The translations under genes were made by a program, and so were the position numbers. A stretch of 64,000 nucleotides of DNA from a virus: the IMG/VR virus record IMGVR_UViG_3300037423_001547; one strand, given 5' to 3'. Below the pieces are notes generated by a model. That model ran no database searches, was not told where the DNA came from, and saw only the letters and a program-made list of their open reading frames with translations. This document shows positions 3,900 through 16,572 of this stretch, piece after piece. Every line of letters begins with the position of its first letter. Positions within the stretch are counted from its first letter, which is position 1.

Positions 3900-4126
3900 G
3901 CCATGGCCTTGGCGGTCTCGGTGACCTCATCCATCACGTCGCGGATGTCGAAGTCGTACGTTTCCGACAGGCGGATCGCCGTGATCAGGTCAGGTTGTGC
4001 GGCGCCTCGAAGGATTCGATAGACGGTGGTCGGGTTGATGCCGGTCCGCTTCTGGATGGCGTGGCCGCTCTTGTCGCCTGCTTCCTCTGCCTTTTCGCGG
4101 AGCTTGGTGACGTTCAGCTGGTACAT
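3896..4126 (-). CDS. Cro-like HTH DNA-binding protein (76 aa)
   Basis: From ATG 4126: MYQLNVTKLREKAEEAGDKSGHAIQKRTGINPTTVYRILRG, an XRE/Cro-type helix-turn-helix. It is divergent from the repressor-like gene. Confidence 0.75.
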   Translation of the reverse strand: MYQLNVTKLREKAEEAGDKSGHAIQKRTGINPTTVYRILRGAAQPDLITAIRLSETYDFDIRDVMDEVTETAKAMA

Positions 4127-4363
4127 GGGTGTGCGCCTCCTTCCGCAGGTAGCGGGGGGTTTCTGCCTCACGAGGAAGACTCTGACAGAAGAATGCCTGC
4201 CGCGCAAGGCAGGTGTCAGGCAAGGCAGGTGCGAATTTCCAGCCGAATGCTTGTTCGATCCCGGGTGTGACCAGTGTTAATGCAGGTCAGTGGCCGGATG
4301 GTGCACCTTCCTCGCGAGGCAGTCCCTAGCTACTGCCTACCTAGGCAGGTACTGTCTAGGGAC
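4127..4363. promoter_or_regulatory. divergent lysis-lysogeny switch region with repeated GGCAG-type operators
   Basis: CAAGGCAGGTG occurs at 4205-4215 and 4221-4231. Dyads: CCTGCC/GGCAGG (4196-4201/4208-4213), AGGCAGT/ACTGCCT (4317-4323/4332-4338), CTGCCTA/TAGGCAG (4334-4340/4343-4349). Confidence 0.6.
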
Positions 4364-4825
4364 ATGACGGATGCCCCCCAGGGCCGCGTACAGCAGTTCT
4401 TCGCGGTCGTCCTCCCCGCCCTCACAGAAGCCGGCTACACCGGCTACGGATCGCAGCAGCGCCTCGCCGACGCCACCGGCATGTCCCCCGGCACGGTGTC
4501 CCGGCTCGTCCGCGGCAAGACGATTCCGGACATCCAGTTTTTCCCGGCCCTCGCCGAGGCGATTGGCATGTCCCCACTCAAGCTGCTCGTTCTCGCGGGC
4601 GTCTTCCCCGAAGAGACGCTTGAGTCCCACCAGCCACTGTCCGAAACTAACCAGTCACAGGTAGGCTCCGAAGGAATCACTCCGGAGAAGGCTGCGGACC
4701 GGCTCGGCTTCCACGACGACGTCCGGCGCGCAATCTTCGTAGGATTCGTCGAATCCCTCAGAAAAACCGAACCCGAGGGCCCCGGCGAGACCAAGGACTC
4801 CGGAGACGCAGCAGCACAGATGTGA
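4364..4825 (+). CDS. cI-like XRE-family repressor
   Basis: From ATG 4364: QQRLADATGMSPGTVSRLVRGKTIPDIQFFPALAEAIG is a clear HTH_XRE motif. It lies next to the integrase and is divergent from the cro-like gene. Confidence 0.75.
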   Translation: MTDAPQGRVQQFFAVVLPALTEAGYTGYGSQQRLADATGMSPGTVSRLVRGKTIPDIQFFPALAEAIGMSPLKLLVLAGVFPEETLESHQPLSETNQSQVGSEGITPEKAADRLGFHDDVRRAIFVGFVESLRKTEPEGPGETKDSGDAAAQM

Positions 4826-4832
4826 TGCGGGG

Positions 4833-5393
4833 GTGCGGTGGATGAGTCTCACAGGCAGTACGCGGACCACAACGACGGCAGGCATAGCGCTCCTGGCCGC
4901 CGGCCTGGCTCTCTGCACCAGCGGAGCCATCCGCGACAGCCTCCCCCACGCCCTCGGCGGAACGTGCCTCACCACTGTCGCGCTCACACTGATCGCACTG
5001 ACCCTCATCCGGCAATGGGTCAGTGACACGCGGCACGAGCGGAAAGACTTGGCTGCCGCACGCCACGACGCCGAGGCGCAGCAGCGTAAGTTCTTCGCTC
5101 TTCAGGCGGCTAACGAAGGTGAGATGGCCCGTTTCAAACGGGACATGAACATGGAGAAGGCCCGCATCGTCGAGACGCTCAGGGTTGAGCGGGAGGCGAT
5201 GCGGGCCCAGTTCGAAGAGGAACGCCTGCAAGTCAGCCAGAACGCGTTCCGGATGGGCGTTGAGATGGAGCGGTCCGGGGCGCTGAGGGCCGTGAAGCCG
5301 GTCCAGCTCGACAATCTCATCCCGTTCCCGGAGCAGGCCTCCCGAGCGTCGGAGCATCAGCGGTCTCGGGAGCACGGAGTGGTCGGTCCCTGA
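4833..5393 (+). CDS. membrane-anchored coiled-coil protein, co-oriented with the repressor
   Basis: Two N-terminal hydrophobic segments (AGIALLAAGLALC, LTTVALTLIALTLI) followed by a charged coiled coil. ATG 4842 is an alternative start. The 3' end overlaps the integrase 3' end convergently. Confidence 0.55.
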   Translation: MRWMSLTGSTRTTTTAGIALLAAGLALCTSGAIRDSLPHALGGTCLTTVALTLIALTLIRQWVSDTRHERKDLAAARHDAEAQQRKFFALQAANEGEMARFKRDMNMEKARIVETLRVEREAMRAQFEEERLQVSQNAFRMGVEMERSGALRAVKPVQLDNLIPFPEQASRASEHQRSREHGVVGP

Positions 5394-6957
5394 ACCCTGG
5401 CTCTCCTGCAAACGCCAGCGTGACACGGCCGTCTTCAATTGTCCGGACAGTCGAACTACGCGCCTTCCACAGCCGCACAGTCACCACCTGCCTTATGACT
5501 TCACGCTTCTGCTCCAGCGACAGCGCCCGCACCGCTGGCCGCCCCTCCTCTTCCGGCGCACCGTTCCACACCACGTCCGGGTCCGGCGCGTTGATGAGCG
5601 CCAGGAGCACGGGGTCCACACCAGTGATCTCGCGCAGCTTCTTCCGTTCGGCTTCCAGCCTCGGCACGAGCCTCTGCTCCAGCGAGGCCAGCGAGGCCGC
5701 AGAGAGCCTGAACCGCCCCGTCTCCTCGTCGTACTCCTCGGCGGTGCGTCGGGCCTCGGCGAGCTGCTCCTCGAAGGCGTTGATGCGGCGCTGTGCGGCC
5801 GCCATCTCGTCCTCGACAGCACCATCGTCGGGGATCAGAGCGGAGATGGCTTTGGACTTGTCGCGGAACCAGTTGACCACTGCTTCTTCGACGTAGGCAT
5901 CGAGCCAGCGTTCCCGGATCGACGTGTCCTTCTTCTCACCGCACTCCAACTTCGGGCCTCTCCCGGCATTGGGGTTCCCCCTCAGCAGCGCGTGGTCGCC
6001 GCAGGGGCCGCACAGGGCAATCAGCGACAGGAGGTGTACGGGCTCAGAGCCGCGCTGCGTGCGCCGAGTTGGGTCCGTCAGCTTGGCCGTGACCCGGTTG
6101 AACATGGCCCGGCCTTCTGGGGTTTCGAGTCCACGGATCGGGGGCCATGTCGCCTTCTTCCAGTCCCCTCCGTTCTTCCGCTCTCCCAAGTACGCGCGGT
6201 TGAGGAGCATCAGCCGGACGTTACGTGTGGTCCACGGGCGGCCGTCCGTGCGGGCCGCTTCCGGTTCGCCGTTCAGCCAGCGGATGAGGGAGGCGACGGA
6301 GTCCCCGCGATCGATGTGCACGAGCGACTGGTACACGAACGGGCCGGTCGTCTTGTTCTCATACTGGCGGACGCACCTGAGCTGTCCGTTGACGACCTCG
6401 TAGTCGCGGCTGTAGCCGAACAGGAGCCTGCCGTGCGGGTCGCCGGCCGCGGCCGTGCGCTGGGCGGTGCGCACGTTGCGGTCCCGGATGTCGTCTGCCT
6501 CCCCTTCCGCATTGATGGCGTCCATGGCGGTTGCCCTGCGGTCGTCGCTGCGGCTGAGGTCGTAGACGGTGCCCTTGTAGCAGAGGAGGACGCCGGCGTG
6601 GAGGCAGGCGGCGCGGAGCCTGACGTAGGCCTCAAGGTCGCGGTAGTACCTGCTGGCTTCGTAGGCGACGACGATGCGGGTGATGCCGGGGCGGGTGGGG
6701 GTGGTTTCGATGGCTTCGAGGAGGTCTTCGAAGTCGTCGCGTGCGCGGGTGGCGTGGCGGGATGCTGAGAGGCCGAGGTCTTTGAACTCTTCGACGATGC
6801 GCCAGCCGTAGTTGTGGCAGATTGCCCGTCCTGCGATGAGCTGGTCTTCGACGCTGTCTCCGCGTTTGTTGGGGTCGCGGGAGGCGCGTCCGTAGAGCAG
6901 TGCTTCGAACTCGGTGTTGGGGAGTACGAGGTGCAGGTATGACGGGTCGTAGGGCAT
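5317..6957 (-). CDS. int: large serine recombinase (phage integrase)
   Basis: N-terminal resolvase catalytic domain with YGRASRD (catalytic Ser context). Also a recombinase domain, a Cys cluster (CGPCG...C) and a C-terminal coiled coil. 546 aa, typical of phiC31/R4-type integrases. Confidence 0.92.
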   Translation of the reverse strand: MPYDPSYLHLVLPNTEFEALLYGRASRDPNKRGDSVEDQLIAGRAICHNYGWRIVEEFKDLGLSASRHATRARDDFEDLLEAIETTPTRPGITRIVVAYEASRYYRDLEAYVRLRAACLHAGVLLCYKGTVYDLSRSDDRRATAMDAINAEGEADDIRDRNVRTAQRTAAAGDPHGRLLFGYSRDYEVVNGQLRCVRQYENKTTGPFVYQSLVHIDRGDSVASLIRWLNGEPEAARTDGRPWTTRNVRLMLLNRAYLGERKNGGDWKKATWPPIRGLETPEGRAMFNRVTAKLTDPTRRTQRGSEPVHLLSLIALCGPCGDHALLRGNPNAGRGPKLECGEKKDTSIRERWLDAYVEEAVVNWFRDKSKAISALIPDDGAVEDEMAAAQRRINAFEEQLAEARRTAEEYDEETGRFRLSAASLASLEQRLVPRLEAERKKLREITGVDPVLLALINAPDPDVVWNGAPEEEGRPAVRALSLEQKREVIRQVVTVRLWKARSSTVRTIEDGRVTLAFAGEPGFRDRPLRAPETADAPTLGRPAPGTG

Positions 6958-7097: not shown

Positions 7098-7304
7098 TCA
7101 GTCGCCGTTGATTTCCTCGACGAGGTTCAGCATGTCGTCGAGTCGGCCGCGCAGCGTCTCGACGAGGAGGATGAGGCCGGCGGCGTCGAGTTGTGCGAGG
7201 TCTTCGGATCGGGCGTATTCGTAGTCTCTACGCGCGTAGTCGACGCGGGTGCGCTGGAGGTCGGTGAGGGGTCCCGGGGGGTGTGGGGACGGCTCATCGG
7301 TCAT
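7098..7304 (-). CDS. hypothetical protein (68 aa)
   Basis: From ATG 7304: MTDEPSPHPPGPLTDLQRTRVDYARRDYEYARSEDL... The upstream part of the track ORF runs into an AT-rich non-coding-looking stretch. Confidence 0.5.
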   Translation of the reverse strand: MTDEPSPHPPGPLTDLQRTRVDYARRDYEYARSEDLAQLDAAGLILLVETLRGRLDDMLNLVEEINGD

Positions 7305-7430
7305 GGTGTGCCACCTGTTTGACGTGCTCATCAGTGGTTGCTGTAACGGCCAATAGTTGACTGTTGAAGTCATATTTTTCAATGGGGCAAGGATCACGTC
7401 ACTCGAACGGGCGTTTTAATCATTCCGTGA

Positions 7431-7745
7431 TTGCGTTCTGGCCGGAAAGCGCACTCACGATGTACCAGAGATGGTACAGACATTGATCATCGCGGGCAGC
7501 AGCGTGTACCCGTGCCATCCGATCCGCTGCCCGACTGGGTACTCACCCGCCGCCGGGCCATCGGAGATGCCGTCCGCGCAGCCCGCACCGCCAAGAAGCT
7601 CAGCCAGGAGACCTTAGGCGAGCTGACGGGCCTCGACCGCAAAACCGTCAACCGGATCGAGCAAGGCACACACCCCACGACCATCGACCGCCTCCTCCTC
7701 ATCGCCGACGCGCTTGACACACCTCTCGCTGACCTCGTCAGGTGA
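7431..7745 (+). CDS. XRE-family HTH regulator
   Basis: KKLSQETLGELTGLDRKTVNRIEQGTHPTTIDRLLLIADAL is a canonical HTH_XRE motif. The start is uncertain: TTG 7431 per the track, or GTG 7512, which would leave the dyad outside the CDS. Confidence 0.65.
   Translation: MRSGRKAHSRCTRDGTDIDHRGQQRVPVPSDPLPDWVLTRRRAIGDAVRAARTAKKLSQETLGELTGLDRKTVNRIEQGTHPTTIDRLLLIADALDTPLADLVR
7461..7478. promoter_or_regulatory. operator-like dyad TGTACCA-N4-TGGTACA
   Basis: Perfect 7-bp inverted arms in the locally AT-richer 7305-7500 stretch, upstream of or overlapping the XRE gene 5' end. Confidence 0.45.
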
Positions 7746-11046: not shown

Positions 11047-11595
11047 ATGACCTCTCGTGTGCTGTACCTGTTCGGCTCGGCGGCTCCTCCGGTCTTCGAC
11101 ATCGCGGCCGTGATCCGGGATGCGCAAGCGCGTGGGTTCGACGTGTGCCTCGGCCTCACTCCCACCGCGAACCGGTGGCTCAGCGAGCAGCTCCCCGACC
11201 TGGAGGAGCTGACCGGGCGCCCAGTCCGGTCCGAGTACAAGCTGCCCGGCGAGCCCGACGTGTGGCCCAAGGCCGACGTCATCGCCGTCGCGCCGGCGAC
11301 CTTCAACACGGTCAACGCGTGGGCGCTCGGCATCACCCGGGACTTCGTTGTCGGTGTCGTCGCCGAGGGCATCGGCAAGGGGATCCCGATCGTGACCATG
11401 CCCTGTGTGAACGCGGCCTACGTGCAGCACCGGCAGTTCGAGCGGAGCGTCGGCGAGCTACGGGAGATGGGGGTGCAGGTGCTGTACGGGGAGGGCGGGT
11501 TCGTGCCGAACCTGCCGGGCCAGGGAAAGCCGAAGGAGTATCCGTGGCACCTGGTGCTCGACACGGCAGAGCGGATTGCGGCGTCAACCCCGTAG
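11047..11595 (+). CDS. HFCD-family flavoprotein (CoaC/EpiD-like cysteine-decarboxylase fold)
   Basis: VLYLFGSAAPP...GLTPTANRWL...VAPATFNTVNAWALGITRD...MPCVN matches the flavoprotein (PF02441-type) signature as I remember it. 182 aa. Confidence 0.75.
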   Translation: MTSRVLYLFGSAAPPVFDIAAVIRDAQARGFDVCLGLTPTANRWLSEQLPDLEELTGRPVRSEYKLPGEPDVWPKADVIAVAPATFNTVNAWALGITRDFVVGVVAEGIGKGIPIVTMPCVNAAYVQHRQFERSVGELREMGVQVLYGEGGFVPNLPGQGKPKEYPWHLVLDTAERIAASTP

Positions 11596-11604
11596 GCTTG
11601 GATC

Positions 11605-11787
11605 ATGTCCCCCGACCCTGCCGTCTCTGGCACCGTGCGGTCGTCTGTCGTCCTCAACGCGCAGATACGGGCCCTGTGGCAGCGTGGCGGCGGCCAGTTG
11701 GGGACAGCCGAGCTGCGGGCGGAGTACGAGCGGCTTGTCGTCGAATGGGCGGCAGCAGTACGGCGCGAGACGGCTGAGGCGGTGTGA
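11605..11787 (+). CDS. hypothetical protein (60 aa)
   Basis: Follows the flavoprotein gene after 9 nt. Helical composition with no Cys. Confidence 0.45.
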   Translation: MSPDPAVSGTVRSSVVLNAQIRALWQRGGGQLGTAELRAEYERLVVEWAAAVRRETAEAV

Positions 11788-11817
11788 CGAAGCCCCGCCT
11801 CCGCCGCGCGGGCGGAC

Positions 11818-12018
11818 TCACGGCTCCTCAGGCCACACAGACAGCTCCTCGCCGGTCTCCTCATCGACGAGGGCGACCCGGACGCCGGGCATGCTGCCGT
11901 ACTCGCCGACCCAGCCGATGAACTTCCGGCGGGCGACTTCCTCGCTACCCCACCAGCCGTGCTGCACTGGCCGGCCGTGCGTGGCGAGCAGGAGGTGGTA
12001 GCGGCCTGGGCTGGTCAT
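11818..12018 (-). CDS. hypothetical protein (66 aa), downstream partner of the LexA-DBD gene
   Basis: ATGA overlap with the upstream gene at 12015-12018. Trp/Gly-rich (HGWWGSEEVARRKFIGWVGEYG). Confidence 0.6.
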   Translation of the reverse strand: MTSPGRYHLLLATHGRPVQHGWWGSEEVARRKFIGWVGEYGSMPGVRVALVDEETGEELSVWPEEP

Positions 12019-12233
12019 GCGAGCCGGATCCCGCGGTAGCGGCCGGGCTCGCGGACGATCGCGCGCTTCGCTTCGAGTTCGACGAGCTGGTAGTGGACGG
12101 AGGCGCGGCTACGCAGGCCGACGGCGGCGCCGATCTCCCGGATGCTCGGTGCTTCGCCGTGGTCGGTGATGTGCTGGCGGATGGCGCGGAGGATGCGCTC
12201 CTGGGTGTCGGTGAGGTGGTCTACGCGGTGCAT
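12015..12233 (-). CDS. LexA N-terminal DNA-binding-domain-only protein (72 aa, no peptidase domain)
   Basis: LTDTQERILRAIRQHITDHGEAPSIREIGAAVGLRSRASVHYQLVELEAKRAIVREPGRYRGIRL matches the LexA winged-helix domain. The ORF stops where the hinge and S24 domain would begin. Confidence 0.75.
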   Translation of the reverse strand: MHRVDHLTDTQERILRAIRQHITDHGEAPSIREIGAAVGLRSRASVHYQLVELEAKRAIVREPGRYRGIRLA

Positions 12234-12241
12234 GCAACGAC

Positions 12242-12257
12242 TAGAGCACGTGTTCGA
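12242..12257 (-). promoter_or_regulatory. SOS-box-like operator
   Basis: The minus strand reads TCGAAC-ACGT-GCTCTA. The left half is perfect and the right half matches 4 of 6 positions of the actinobacterial TCGAAC-N4-GTTCGA box. It is 9 nt upstream of ATG 12233, with ATAAAAT just upstream. Confidence 0.45.
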
Positions 12258-12284
12258 ATTTTATGGCAAGGTGACGCACCAGGC

Positions 12285-12317
12285 AGGGCCCCGCACGCGC
12301 GCGGCGGACGGGGCCCT
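12285..12317 (-). terminator. hairpin ending the late operon
   Basis: AGGGCCCCG (12285-12293) pairs with CGGGGCCCT (12309-12317), abutting the stop of the last late gene. Confidence 0.6.
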
Positions 12318-12595
12318 CACCGGTTGCTGATCGTGAGGTGGATCGACCGCTCGTCGATCAGCCCCCCGACAGTGGTGATCTGGCAGACCAGCGTGTACGC
12401 GCTGTCGACCGTCCCACCCGACACCCGCTGAGTCACCACCGTGCCCGTCACAACAGGCGCCCCGACAGCAGTAAGCCCGGCAGGCACGGTGACCGTCGCA
12501 GAACTGATCGTGTCAGCGACCTCCGCGAGCCACGCCGACCAGTCCCAGGTGTAATCCAGCAGCGCGGAAGGATCCTTGACGTAACTGTCGGCCAC
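12317..12595 (-). CDS. hypothetical virion-associated protein (92 aa)
   Basis: Last gene of the late operon with a beta-rich Thr/Val composition. Confidence 0.6.
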   Translation of the reverse strand: MADSYVKDPSALLDYTWDWSAWLAEVADTISSATVTVPAGLTAVGAPVVTGTVVTQRVSGGTVDSAYTLVCQITTVGGLIDERSIHLTISNR

Positions 12596-15385: not shown

Positions 15386-16330
15386 TTACTGGGCGAGGCG
15401 CGCGGCGAGTTTGGCCGCGACCTTCTCTGCGATCTGTTCGGCGAGTGCCGGGTTCGCGGCGACCGCTGCGGCGAGCGCCGTGATCTGCGCGTCCGACACG
15501 ACCGGCGTCGTCAGCGTGTCGACCTTCTTCGCGAGCTCGCGCAGGCGGGTGTTGGTGTCCTTGAGGTAGGACTGGGGCTGCCAGGTCGTGTTGGTGGCCG
15601 CGTCCGGCGCATCCGGCGGGGCGGCGACCTGGTCGGTCTTCCAGACGGCGTCGTAGATGTCGGCCTTGGTGATTCCGGCCATGGGGTCCTCTTCCTGGGT
15701 GGGTCCTGCACGGAGGGTGGAGGCCACGTCGGAGCGGACCGCAGGCATGGCCATGATCTTGCCCGGGGCGTAGCCGGGGTCCCACTTGTCGTCGGACCAT
15801 TCGCCGTGCGCGATGACCGAGCGTTCCGTCCAGCCGTGGAAATCGAGGACCGCCGCCGACAACCGGCGGGCCGCCGCATACTGCGCCGCGCTCATCTCAT
15901 GCGATCCGCTGTACTGGATCTCGACGCCGTAGAAGTGGGCGTTGCCGTCCACCCCGTCGCTGTTGCCGCGCGTCGGGTGCAACTGGCCCGTGTAGTCCTC
16001 GTTGATGACGTGCTGCAGCACCGCCGGGTCGCCGCCGCCAGCGTGGTTCGCTCGGCCCCAGCCGATCAGGTAGACGGTGCCGTCGGCGCCGATGGAGAAG
16101 TGGCAGAGCGGGCCCGGCAGGTCGGAGAGTCCGTTGTAGAGGGTGCCTGCGGCGTAGGCCTTGGCGTCTTTCACGTCGGCGCCGGTGTGGTGCCAGATGA
16201 AGCCGTTGACCGGCCCCCACGCGCCCTTGCTGTTGCGGTTGTGGGTGGCCCAGCCGGAGATCTCGACGTACCGGAGACCCCACTTCTTCAGCTGGGTGAC
16301 GGCCTCCGTGGCCGTCATCGGGGTCGCCAT
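15386..16330 (-). CDS. endolysin, N-acetylmuramoyl-L-alanine amidase (PGRP/amidase_2 type)
   Basis: From ATG 16330 (GGAG upstream): GFIWHHTGADV...GRANHAGGGD...FYGVEIQYSG are amidase_2-like motifs, with an Ala-rich C-terminal domain. The track extension to 16429 has no RBS and covers a regulatory motif. Confidence 0.88.
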   Translation of the reverse strand: MATPMTATEAVTQLKKWGLRYVEISGWATHNRNSKGAWGPVNGFIWHHTGADVKDAKAYAAGTLYNGLSDLPGPLCHFSIGADGTVYLIGWGRANHAGGGDPAVLQHVINEDYTGQLHPTRGNSDGVDGNAHFYGVEIQYSGSHEMSAAQYAAARRLSAAVLDFHGWTERSVIAHGEWSDDKWDPGYAPGKIMAMPAVRSDVASTLRAGPTQEEDPMAGITKADIYDAVWKTDQVAAPPDAPDAATNTTWQPQSYLKDTNTRLRELAKKVDTLTTPVVSDAQITALAAAVAANPALAEQIAEKVAAKLAARLAQ

Positions 16331-16331
16331 C

Positions 16332-16382
16332 TCAGGCTCCGTTCGCGCTGGCGTGGCGGGCGAGTGACGATTCCGCGGGCAT
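16332..16382 (-). CDS. 16-codon upstream ORF coupled to the endolysin start
   Basis: ATG 16382 preceded by GGGAGG. Encodes MPAESSLARHASANGA. The TGA (16334-16332) sits 1 nt before the lysin ATG. Confidence 0.3.
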   Translation of the reverse strand: MPAESSLARHASANGA

Positions 16383-16405
16383 GCTGGCCTCCCACAGGCT
16401 AGGTT

Positions 16406-16419
16406 CCTTTGAATCGTAG
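16406..16419 (-). promoter_or_regulatory. late-operon leader motif, copy 1 (upstream of the lysis genes)
   Basis: The minus strand reads CTACGATTCAAAGG, 23 nt upstream of the uORF ATG. A second GAATCGCAG copy lies at 16443-16451. Confidence 0.5.
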
Positions 16420-16572
16420 CCTGTAGCACCCCATTGACCTATGAATCGCAGGCTATAGTTCGTTCATCCCTGGCTCAGGGGATGGCGGCGGGAGCGTGTC
16501 CGTGCGGGTCGCGCTCTCGCCGCGCCAGGCACCGGCACCCCCACCCGCACAAACCCGCACGCAGGAGCAGCC

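Follow-up and report, generated by a model that had tools for sequence, protein, structure and literature searches.

A LexA DNA-binding domain without the cleavage domain, encoded with a conserved partner behind an SOS-type operator in a temperate Streptomyces-type phage

The IMG/VR virus record IMGVR_UViG_3300037423_001547 is a 64-kb stretch of DNA (G+C 68%), called the window here, from a temperate phage of the Streptomyces type. Its minus strand carries a cassette of two small genes. The first gene (12015..12233) encodes a protein of 72 amino acids (aa; isoelectric point, pI, 10.7) that belongs to the family PF01726, LexA_DNA_bind. The second gene (11818..12018) encodes an acidic, Trp/Gly-rich partner of 66 aa (pI 5.2) and overlaps the first gene with the sequence ATGA. 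Upstream of the LexA-like gene, the minus strand reads TCGAACACGTGCTCTA (TCGAAC-ACGT-GCTCTA, 12242..12257), an SOS box that lies in the promoter spacer and overlaps a -10-like hexamer. A first-pass annotation, made from the sequence alone, had placed this box 9 nucleotides (nt) before the ATG. The box is there on the minus strand and is conserved, and its distance to the ATG is 8 nt.

The 72-aa protein matched PF01726 with 65.1 bits and an E-value of 5e-18 over the profile positions 3-65 of 65, where the gathering cut-off is 23.7 bits. It also matched the lexA model TIGR00498 with 59.4 bits at the model positions 3-68 of 203, which is below the equivalog cut-off of 110.95 bits. The protein aligns to the residues 4-68 of Escherichia coli LexA and terminates with ...RGIRLA at the start of the LexA hinge. 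The AlphaFold2 model (predicted local distance difference test, pLDDT, 91) consists of three helices (residues 9-25, 31-38 and 43-55) and a two-stranded beta wing (59-61 and 69-71). The best matches of this model in the PDB were the N-terminal domains of LexA proteins, with a template modelling (TM) score of 0.86 and a root-mean-square deviation of 1.1 Å for 3JSO. The assignment as a LexA winged-helix domain in the first-pass annotation is borne out by these comparisons, as is its statement that the protein stops before the hinge and the S24 peptidase.

No protein of the window matched the Peptidase_S24 profile. When the 64-kb window was searched by tblastn with the C-terminal domain of the Streptomyces host LexA, no match was obtained (best E 0.06), and therefore no frameshifted lexA is hidden in it. 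A frameshifted full-length gene, which the earlier annotation had itself raised as a source of error, was rejected on two further grounds: the 200 nt downstream are a conserved unrelated gene, and 265 clusters of about 72-74 aa represent a stable short form. The 72-aa protein is a LexA DNA-binding domain without a cleavage or dimerisation domain. It shares the winged-helix domain with cellular LexA (TIGR00498), of which the Streptomyces host copy is 49% identical to it, but it has neither the Ala-Gly cleavage site nor the S24 Ser/Lys domain, and the dimer interface is missing as well. The recognition helix reads RSRASVHYQL and is nearly invariant across the family, whereas the host LexA has SSTSSVAHQL. 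The differences include 2-3 positions that align to what we take, from the structure 3JSO, to be the base-contacting residues of E. coli LexA. Covariation of the recognition helix with the box within the family was uninformative, since both are nearly invariant.

The conservation of the pair was analysed in 77 related loci, 53 from Streptomyces genomes and 24 from IMG/VR contigs. The partner gene was found directly downstream of the LexA-like gene in 68 of the 77 loci, in agreement with the coupled partner of the first reading, and the LexA-like gene stood without it in the other 9. The 4-nt overlap of both genes was present in 45 of 56 intact copies. Relatives of the LexA-like protein form 265 clusters of 69-107 aa, nearly all of 72 or 74 aa and from Streptomyces, and are named 'LexA family protein' in the source. 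The relatives of the partner form 107 clusters, and 225 representative clusters at 50% identity. The LexA-like gene has a median pairwise ratio of nonsynonymous to synonymous substitutions (dN/dS) of 0.27 and the partner gene one of 0.54, which points to purifying selection on both genes. The neighbours of the cassette vary: some copies adjoin phage tail and lysis genes, as in the window, others small GntR and XRE genes, and 30 loci have a DUF6233 gene in divergent orientation. The cassette was also found on plasmids, for example S. collinus pSCO1, and in several copies within one genome. Across the compared sequences, the two genes form a conserved cassette that Streptomyces prophages, plasmids and islands share. 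The same phage is present on 11 contigs, one of them from a JGI metagenome, and on this contig an independent gene caller also gave the 72- and 66-aa open reading frames (ORFs) together with a neighbouring one of 60 aa.

The DUF6233 gene (PF19746) codes for a protein of about 110-120 aa whose C-terminal part has a CxxC-type motif. In the 30 related loci where it is divergent to the cassette, its start is found 20-80 nt upstream of the -35 element of the cassette (for example L002 5575-5935 on the minus strand, L061, and L088 5573-5929). The gene was not found in the window, and a literature search on DUF6233 gave no report.

For Streptomyces venezuelae, the LexA motif tCGAAC-N4-GNNCGa was defined by chromatin immunoprecipitation sequencing (ChIP-seq) and surface plasmon resonance (Stratton et al. 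2022, PMC9380542). The box at 12242-12257 has one mismatch to this motif, a T for G at position 15, and its 14-nt core, TCGAACACGTGCTC, fits perfectly. The match is not significant by itself, as the counts in the window are near the chance expectation. With up to 2 mismatches the motif was found 6 times (2.5 expected), and TCGAAC-N4-GNNC was also found 6 times (4.1 expected). The weight of the box comes from its conservation across the loci and from the published ChIP-seq on an identical site. The pattern TCGAAC-N4-GNNC fits 57 of 61 related loci, and no further operator copies above background were observed in the window.

An alignment of 65 distinct upstream sequences showed the conserved block cTTGCCc-N4-AAtTCGAACAnGnGCTCTAaT-N6-ATG, and the sequence beyond this block is unconserved. 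The positions of TTGCC(C) carry 1.4-1.7 bits each. In the 61 of 77 loci with this arrangement, the start codon follows the beginning of the box at one of two distances, 24 nt (54 loci) or 25 nt (7 loci). The offset is equal for the variants that start with MHRVD (72 aa) and MARHRVD (74 aa) and for an unrelated gene on the plasmid pSVJI1. In the window, the -35-like hexamer is TTGCCA (12264..12269, minus strand), of which TTGCC(C) is conserved in the relatives. It is followed after 18 nt by the -10-like hexamer TCTAGT (12240..12245, minus strand), which is TCTAAT in most relatives and ends 6 nt before the ATG. The simplest reading of this block is a promoter with TTGCCC as -35, an 18-nt spacer and TCTAAT as -10, present in the window as TTGCCA-N18-TCTAGT-N6-ATG. 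No Shine-Dalgarno sequence was seen in the variable 6-nt gap before the ATG, and we infer from this geometry that the mRNA is leaderless and starts at the A of the ATG. The very short leader of the first-pass annotation agrees with this arrangement and is probably absent altogether. The -10-like element ATAAAAT that it had named did not hold, because this sequence is specific to the window and its first position is a T in just 6 of the 65 relatives.

The same box has been studied on another replicon. In Table 1 of Stratton et al. 2022, TCGAACACGTGCTC is listed for pvnz_37140 of the S. venezuelae plasmid pSVJI1 (PMC9380542), and the 14-nt core in the window is identical to this site. The LexA-FLAG summit was reported at position 74160 of pSVJI1 with a log2 enrichment of 3.26 (PMC9380542 supplement). 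In the fetched plasmid sequence the box is located at 74157-74170, so the summit falls within the box. After treatment with mitomycin C the RNA of pvnz_37140 was increased with a log2 fold change of 3.94 (15-fold) and that of pvnz_37135 with 2.91 (PMC9380542 supplement). The plasmid stretch reads gAATTCGAACACGTGCTCTAATcgaattATG, which is the same cassette with the same spacing. The pvnz_37140-37135 operon thus shares with the phage the 14-nt box and the cassette AATTCGAACACGTGCTCTAAT-N6-ATG, and it has a DUF6233 gene nearby as in the 30 related loci, but what it carries differs: a gene for an 83-aa protein and a Y-family polymerase-like gene. In the S. venezuelae plasmid record NZ_CP018075 (72900-74789), the SOS box and leaderless cassette are placed to drive these two genes, with DUF6233 on the other side. 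The SOS-box cassette therefore looks like a portable promoter module whose cargo can be exchanged.

No LexA-type domain is encoded on pSVJI1. Since the identical box is bound by LexA and induced by mitomycin on a plasmid without a LexA-like gene, this type of box is occupied in vivo by host LexA and responds to DNA damage without any such paralogue. By analogy, a site for host LexA is the best explanation of the operator at 12242-12257, and the operon would then be SOS-induced. That host LexA represses the phage cassette and that DNA damage induces it seems likely to us; the occupancy by LexA and the response to mitomycin are carried over here from the published work on the identical box of another replicon. 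The operator had earlier been taken to indicate autoregulation. An SOS-type operator does overlap the promoter, but with host LexA as its best explanation autoregulation is possible and is not required by the operator.

More distant LexA domain-only genes of 68-74 aa were found on linear plasmids of Streptomyces. Their recognition helix, SSTSSVAYQL, is nearly identical to the host sequence SSTSSVAHQL. In these operons the LexA gene is the second gene, and the first gene (81-83 aa) belongs to the pvnz_37140 family. The operon of NZ_CP108453 (L094, 1229-1716) opens with TCGAACAGGTGATCTAAT-N6-ATG, and that of NZ_CP108868 (L092, 1235-1707) opens with TCGAACACGTGTTGTA, followed 9 nt later by the ATG. 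No such box was present at that position in NZ_CP109588 and NZ_CP109577, so 2 of the 4 loci of this second family carry it. A truncated LexA behind an SOS box thus appears, from these sequences, to have arisen more than once in Streptomyces mobile elements.

The 66-aa partner was modelled by AlphaFold2 with a pLDDT of 90.8 as a beta-beta-alpha-beta-beta fold. No family match was obtained in Pfam, PHROG, PADLOC or NCBIfam, and a Foldseek search of the PDB gave nothing significant (best E 0.33). In BFVD the model resembled uncharacterised small phage proteins alone, with TM scores of about 0.75-0.8 and E-values of about 4e-3. A remote S24 domain or a known toxin was rejected, as neither a family match nor a significant PDB match was found. 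Two fusions of the LexA domain to the partner (P0277 and P0358) were not used as evidence for an interaction, because their linkers look like frameshift products. Judged from its conservation and the gene overlap, the partner is a genuine, conserved gene that is translationally coupled to the LexA-like gene.

The protein gp71 of the Streptomyces phage Kromp is 56% identical to the partner, and its gene (3991-4185 of the fetched Kromp locus) stands alone, without a LexA-like gene. It is the sole partner homologue in an isolated phage, is oriented against both of its neighbours and lies near a phage sigma-factor gene. An SOS box was looked for upstream of Kromp gp71 and was not found. Some other relatives of the partner (P0267, P0321, P0373 and P0275) have a Cys-rich N-terminal extension of about 80 aa without a Pfam match, which is possibly zinc-binding.

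The cassette is positioned in an accessory stretch between the late operon and the integrase, where a flavoprotein gene and a 394-aa XRE regulator adjoin it. The long late operon on the minus strand runs from the terminase and portal genes through the tape-measure gene and the endolysin to a Gp77-like tail gene. The endolysin is an amidase (15386-16429), and the Gp77-like tail protein gene (12317-12595, minus strand, match to PF23148) is located directly upstream of the cassette. Directly after the stop codon of the tail gene, a GC-rich hairpin can be read from the sequence on the minus strand (12286..12316; GGGCCCCG, a 15-nt loop and CGGGGCCC). It has no T-tract and was not called by a consensus terminator scan; the combined promoter and terminator scan of 11500-12500 gave zero calls. 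The hairpin probably ends the late operon, and therefore the cassette would form a separate transcription unit. On the other side of the cassette, the 60-aa ORF (11605-11787, plus strand) is convergent with the partner gene. It has homologues in 17 related loci, where small GntR-type and XRE-type genes often come after it, and no family match.

A large serine integrase is encoded at 5317-6957. An AT-rich stretch at 7380-7500 adjoins it and contains the inverted repeat TGTACCA-tctc-TGGTACA at 7461-7478. A weak SOS-like box is located at 7403-7418, just upstream of an ORF on the minus strand (7098-7397). Beyond the integrase, the sequence CCGAATGCTTGTTCGA (reverse complement TCGAACAAGCATTCGG) at 4243-4258 resembles the validated recA box and is found 16 nt upstream of an XRE ORF (4274-4825, plus strand). 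It could be another site for LexA, or the resemblance may be due to chance.

Taken together, the cassette is best explained as a self-contained, DNA-damage-inducible two-gene moron between the late operon and the integrase. In the lysogen, the promoter (TTGCCA-N18-TCTAGT) would be kept shut by a dimer of host LexA on the overlapping SOS box. Upon DNA damage, active RecA would lead to the self-cleavage of LexA and the promoter would open, producing a bicistronic mRNA that is presumably leaderless. The 72-aa protein made from it could not be inactivated by RecA, because both the hinge and the S24 domain are missing from it. It would most likely bind to GAAC-type boxes, including its own operator in a negative feedback, and might also bind to SOS boxes of the host or of rival elements, by which the SOS output would be capped or reshaped. 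The first-pass annotation had likewise suggested that the protein could dampen or rewire the SOS regulon of the host. The coupled acidic 66-aa protein would serve as an accessory factor. The domain identity, the missing cleavage domain and the conservation of the pair, the promoter and the box were observed here directly. The full model, in which an SOS-switched cassette encodes a product that in addition targets GAAC-type boxes, its own among them, goes further, and we favour it tentatively, with a confidence that stays a little short of the halfway mark.

Several observations weigh against this model. The differences in the recognition helix imply that the target of the 72-aa protein may not be the SOS box, and the binding of palindromes may be poor when the dimerisation domain is missing. 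As the window has no further strong box, the own promoter is the sole evident target in the phage. The -10-like hexamer has a C at the normally invariant A of position 2, which is why no consensus sigma-70 promoter was called. On pSVJI1, the LexA ChIP enrichment drops by just 0.29 log2 units after mitomycin C (PMC9380542).

The closest characterised relative is gp6 of GIL01, a tectivirus of Bacillus thuringiensis, where a promoter repressed by host LexA drives this truncated LexA homologue (Fornelos et al. 2018, PMC6182141). Like the 72-aa protein, gp6 is essentially a phage-encoded LexA winged-helix domain without a cleavage domain, and under the control of host LexA it is made after DNA damage. 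It binds DNA specifically and, together with gp7, activates the late promoter via its own palindrome GaCACAnnTGTGaC, which overlaps the -35 element. GIL01 also encodes gp1, a 58-aa winged-helix autorepressor. The 72-aa protein has the domain-only form and the phage context in common with gp6, and by the identity of its box would share the control by host LexA as well. GIL01 gp6 was not among its sequence matches. Unlike gp6, the Streptomyces protein is encoded in an accessory cassette directly behind an SOS box, is accompanied by a conserved partner of 66 aa and is also found outside phages. Another similar protein is gp13 of the mycobacteriophage Wildcat, for which the reported data are a phenotype upon overexpression and a host protein that co-precipitates (Ko and Hatfull 2020, PMC7474061). 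It also comes from an actinobacteriophage, has 77 aa, is annotated as LexA-like and has no cleavage domain, but the searches did not return it as a sequence relative, and neither an SOS-box wiring nor a partner is described for it. The Listeria protein AriS inhibits the SOS response and is not LexA-like.

The GIL01 precedent allows another reading of the phage cassette. The operon would be timed by host LexA, and the 72-aa protein would use a DNA specificity of its own for switching genes of the mobile element. This is how gp6 works, which appears after the loss of LexA, recognises a distinct palindrome and activates the late genes (PMC6182141), and a recognition helix that is nearly invariant in the family and unlike that of host LexA would suit such a regulator. 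What speaks against it is the setting of the cassette: at 70-88% identity it is found among unrelated neighbours in prophages, plasmids and islands that have no evident element-specific target in common. No second conserved palindrome was observed near the cassette, and no other copy of the motif exceeds the background in the window. We regard this reading as unlikely, yet as the most serious of the rivals. A different role would be the induction of the prophage, with the partner or the pair inactivating a non-cleavable phage repressor. In coliphage 186 (tum) and with the Gifsy antirepressors, host LexA reportedly gates a small prophage operon in this way, and no cleavable phage repressor is needed. 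An SOS box directly before small prophage genes is said to be the typical layout of LexA-controlled antirepressors. The window would also suit such a module, as BLAST with the C-terminal domain of host LexA found no S24-like sequence and the putative regulators of the phage are of the XRE type. The products of 186 and Gifsy are antirepressors, however, whereas the first product of the Streptomyces cassette is a LexA-type DNA binder without antirepressor homology, and no antirepressor family or fold was detected for the cassette. It is found just as often on plasmids and beside DUF6233 genes outside phages, occurs in several copies per genome, and its partner is found without a box in Kromp. 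This makes a role in prophage induction improbable.

The first-pass annotation had seen in the gene pair the layout of a type II toxin-antitoxin system, that is, an addiction module with the helix-turn-helix protein as autorepressing antitoxin and the 66-aa protein as toxin. Two small overlapping genes behind a promoter with an operator are indeed arranged like this, the module is mobile, is found in several copies and is degraded in some cases, and Wildcat gp13 inhibits growth when overexpressed (PMC7474061). The properties of the two proteins do not follow the scheme. No toxin family or fold was matched by the partner, which is acidic while the DNA binder is basic, and the dN/dS values show a stronger conservation of the DNA binder than of the partner. 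The pairing is not obligate either, as the partner occurs alone in Kromp and the DNA binder alone in 9 of the 77 loci, and the operator, best read as a host-LexA site, is of a type that an unrelated operon uses as well. The toxin-antitoxin layout could not be upheld, and we consider it very improbable.

We return to the SOS-switched cassette with a product acting on GAAC-type boxes as the preferred reading. Among the truncated LexA copies, GIL01 gp6 is the one that we found studied in the literature. For the Streptomyces family, the wiring is legible from the sequence, since the gene lies directly behind the type of box that host LexA occupies on another replicon. New here are the conserved cassette with its partner, the identity of the box with a ChIP-validated site and the fixed, apparently leaderless geometry. 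These features and the spread over phages, plasmids and islands set the family apart.

A wider hypothesis would be that Streptomyces mobile elements repeatedly place a non-cleavable LexA domain under the control of host LexA. After the cleavage of LexA, this RecA-proof substitute would re-close SOS boxes or selectively keep them closed, which would give the element a second SOS layer of its own. Such a layer could mute host mutagenesis or repair, or silence rival prophages that are gated by LexA, and the 66-aa partner might supply the oligomerisation function that the domain lacks. We put this forward as a speculative idea that is rather unlikely to hold in full. A damage-induced, RecA-proof LexA surrogate is testable in S. 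venezuelae, where lexA tools and datasets exist. If this surrogate hypothesis is false, the cassette is still a well-defined SOS-inducible promoter cassette, probably leaderless, and it places two conserved small proteins in a regulatory context. If it is true, it would show how plasmids and prophages edit the DNA-damage response of their host in Streptomyces.

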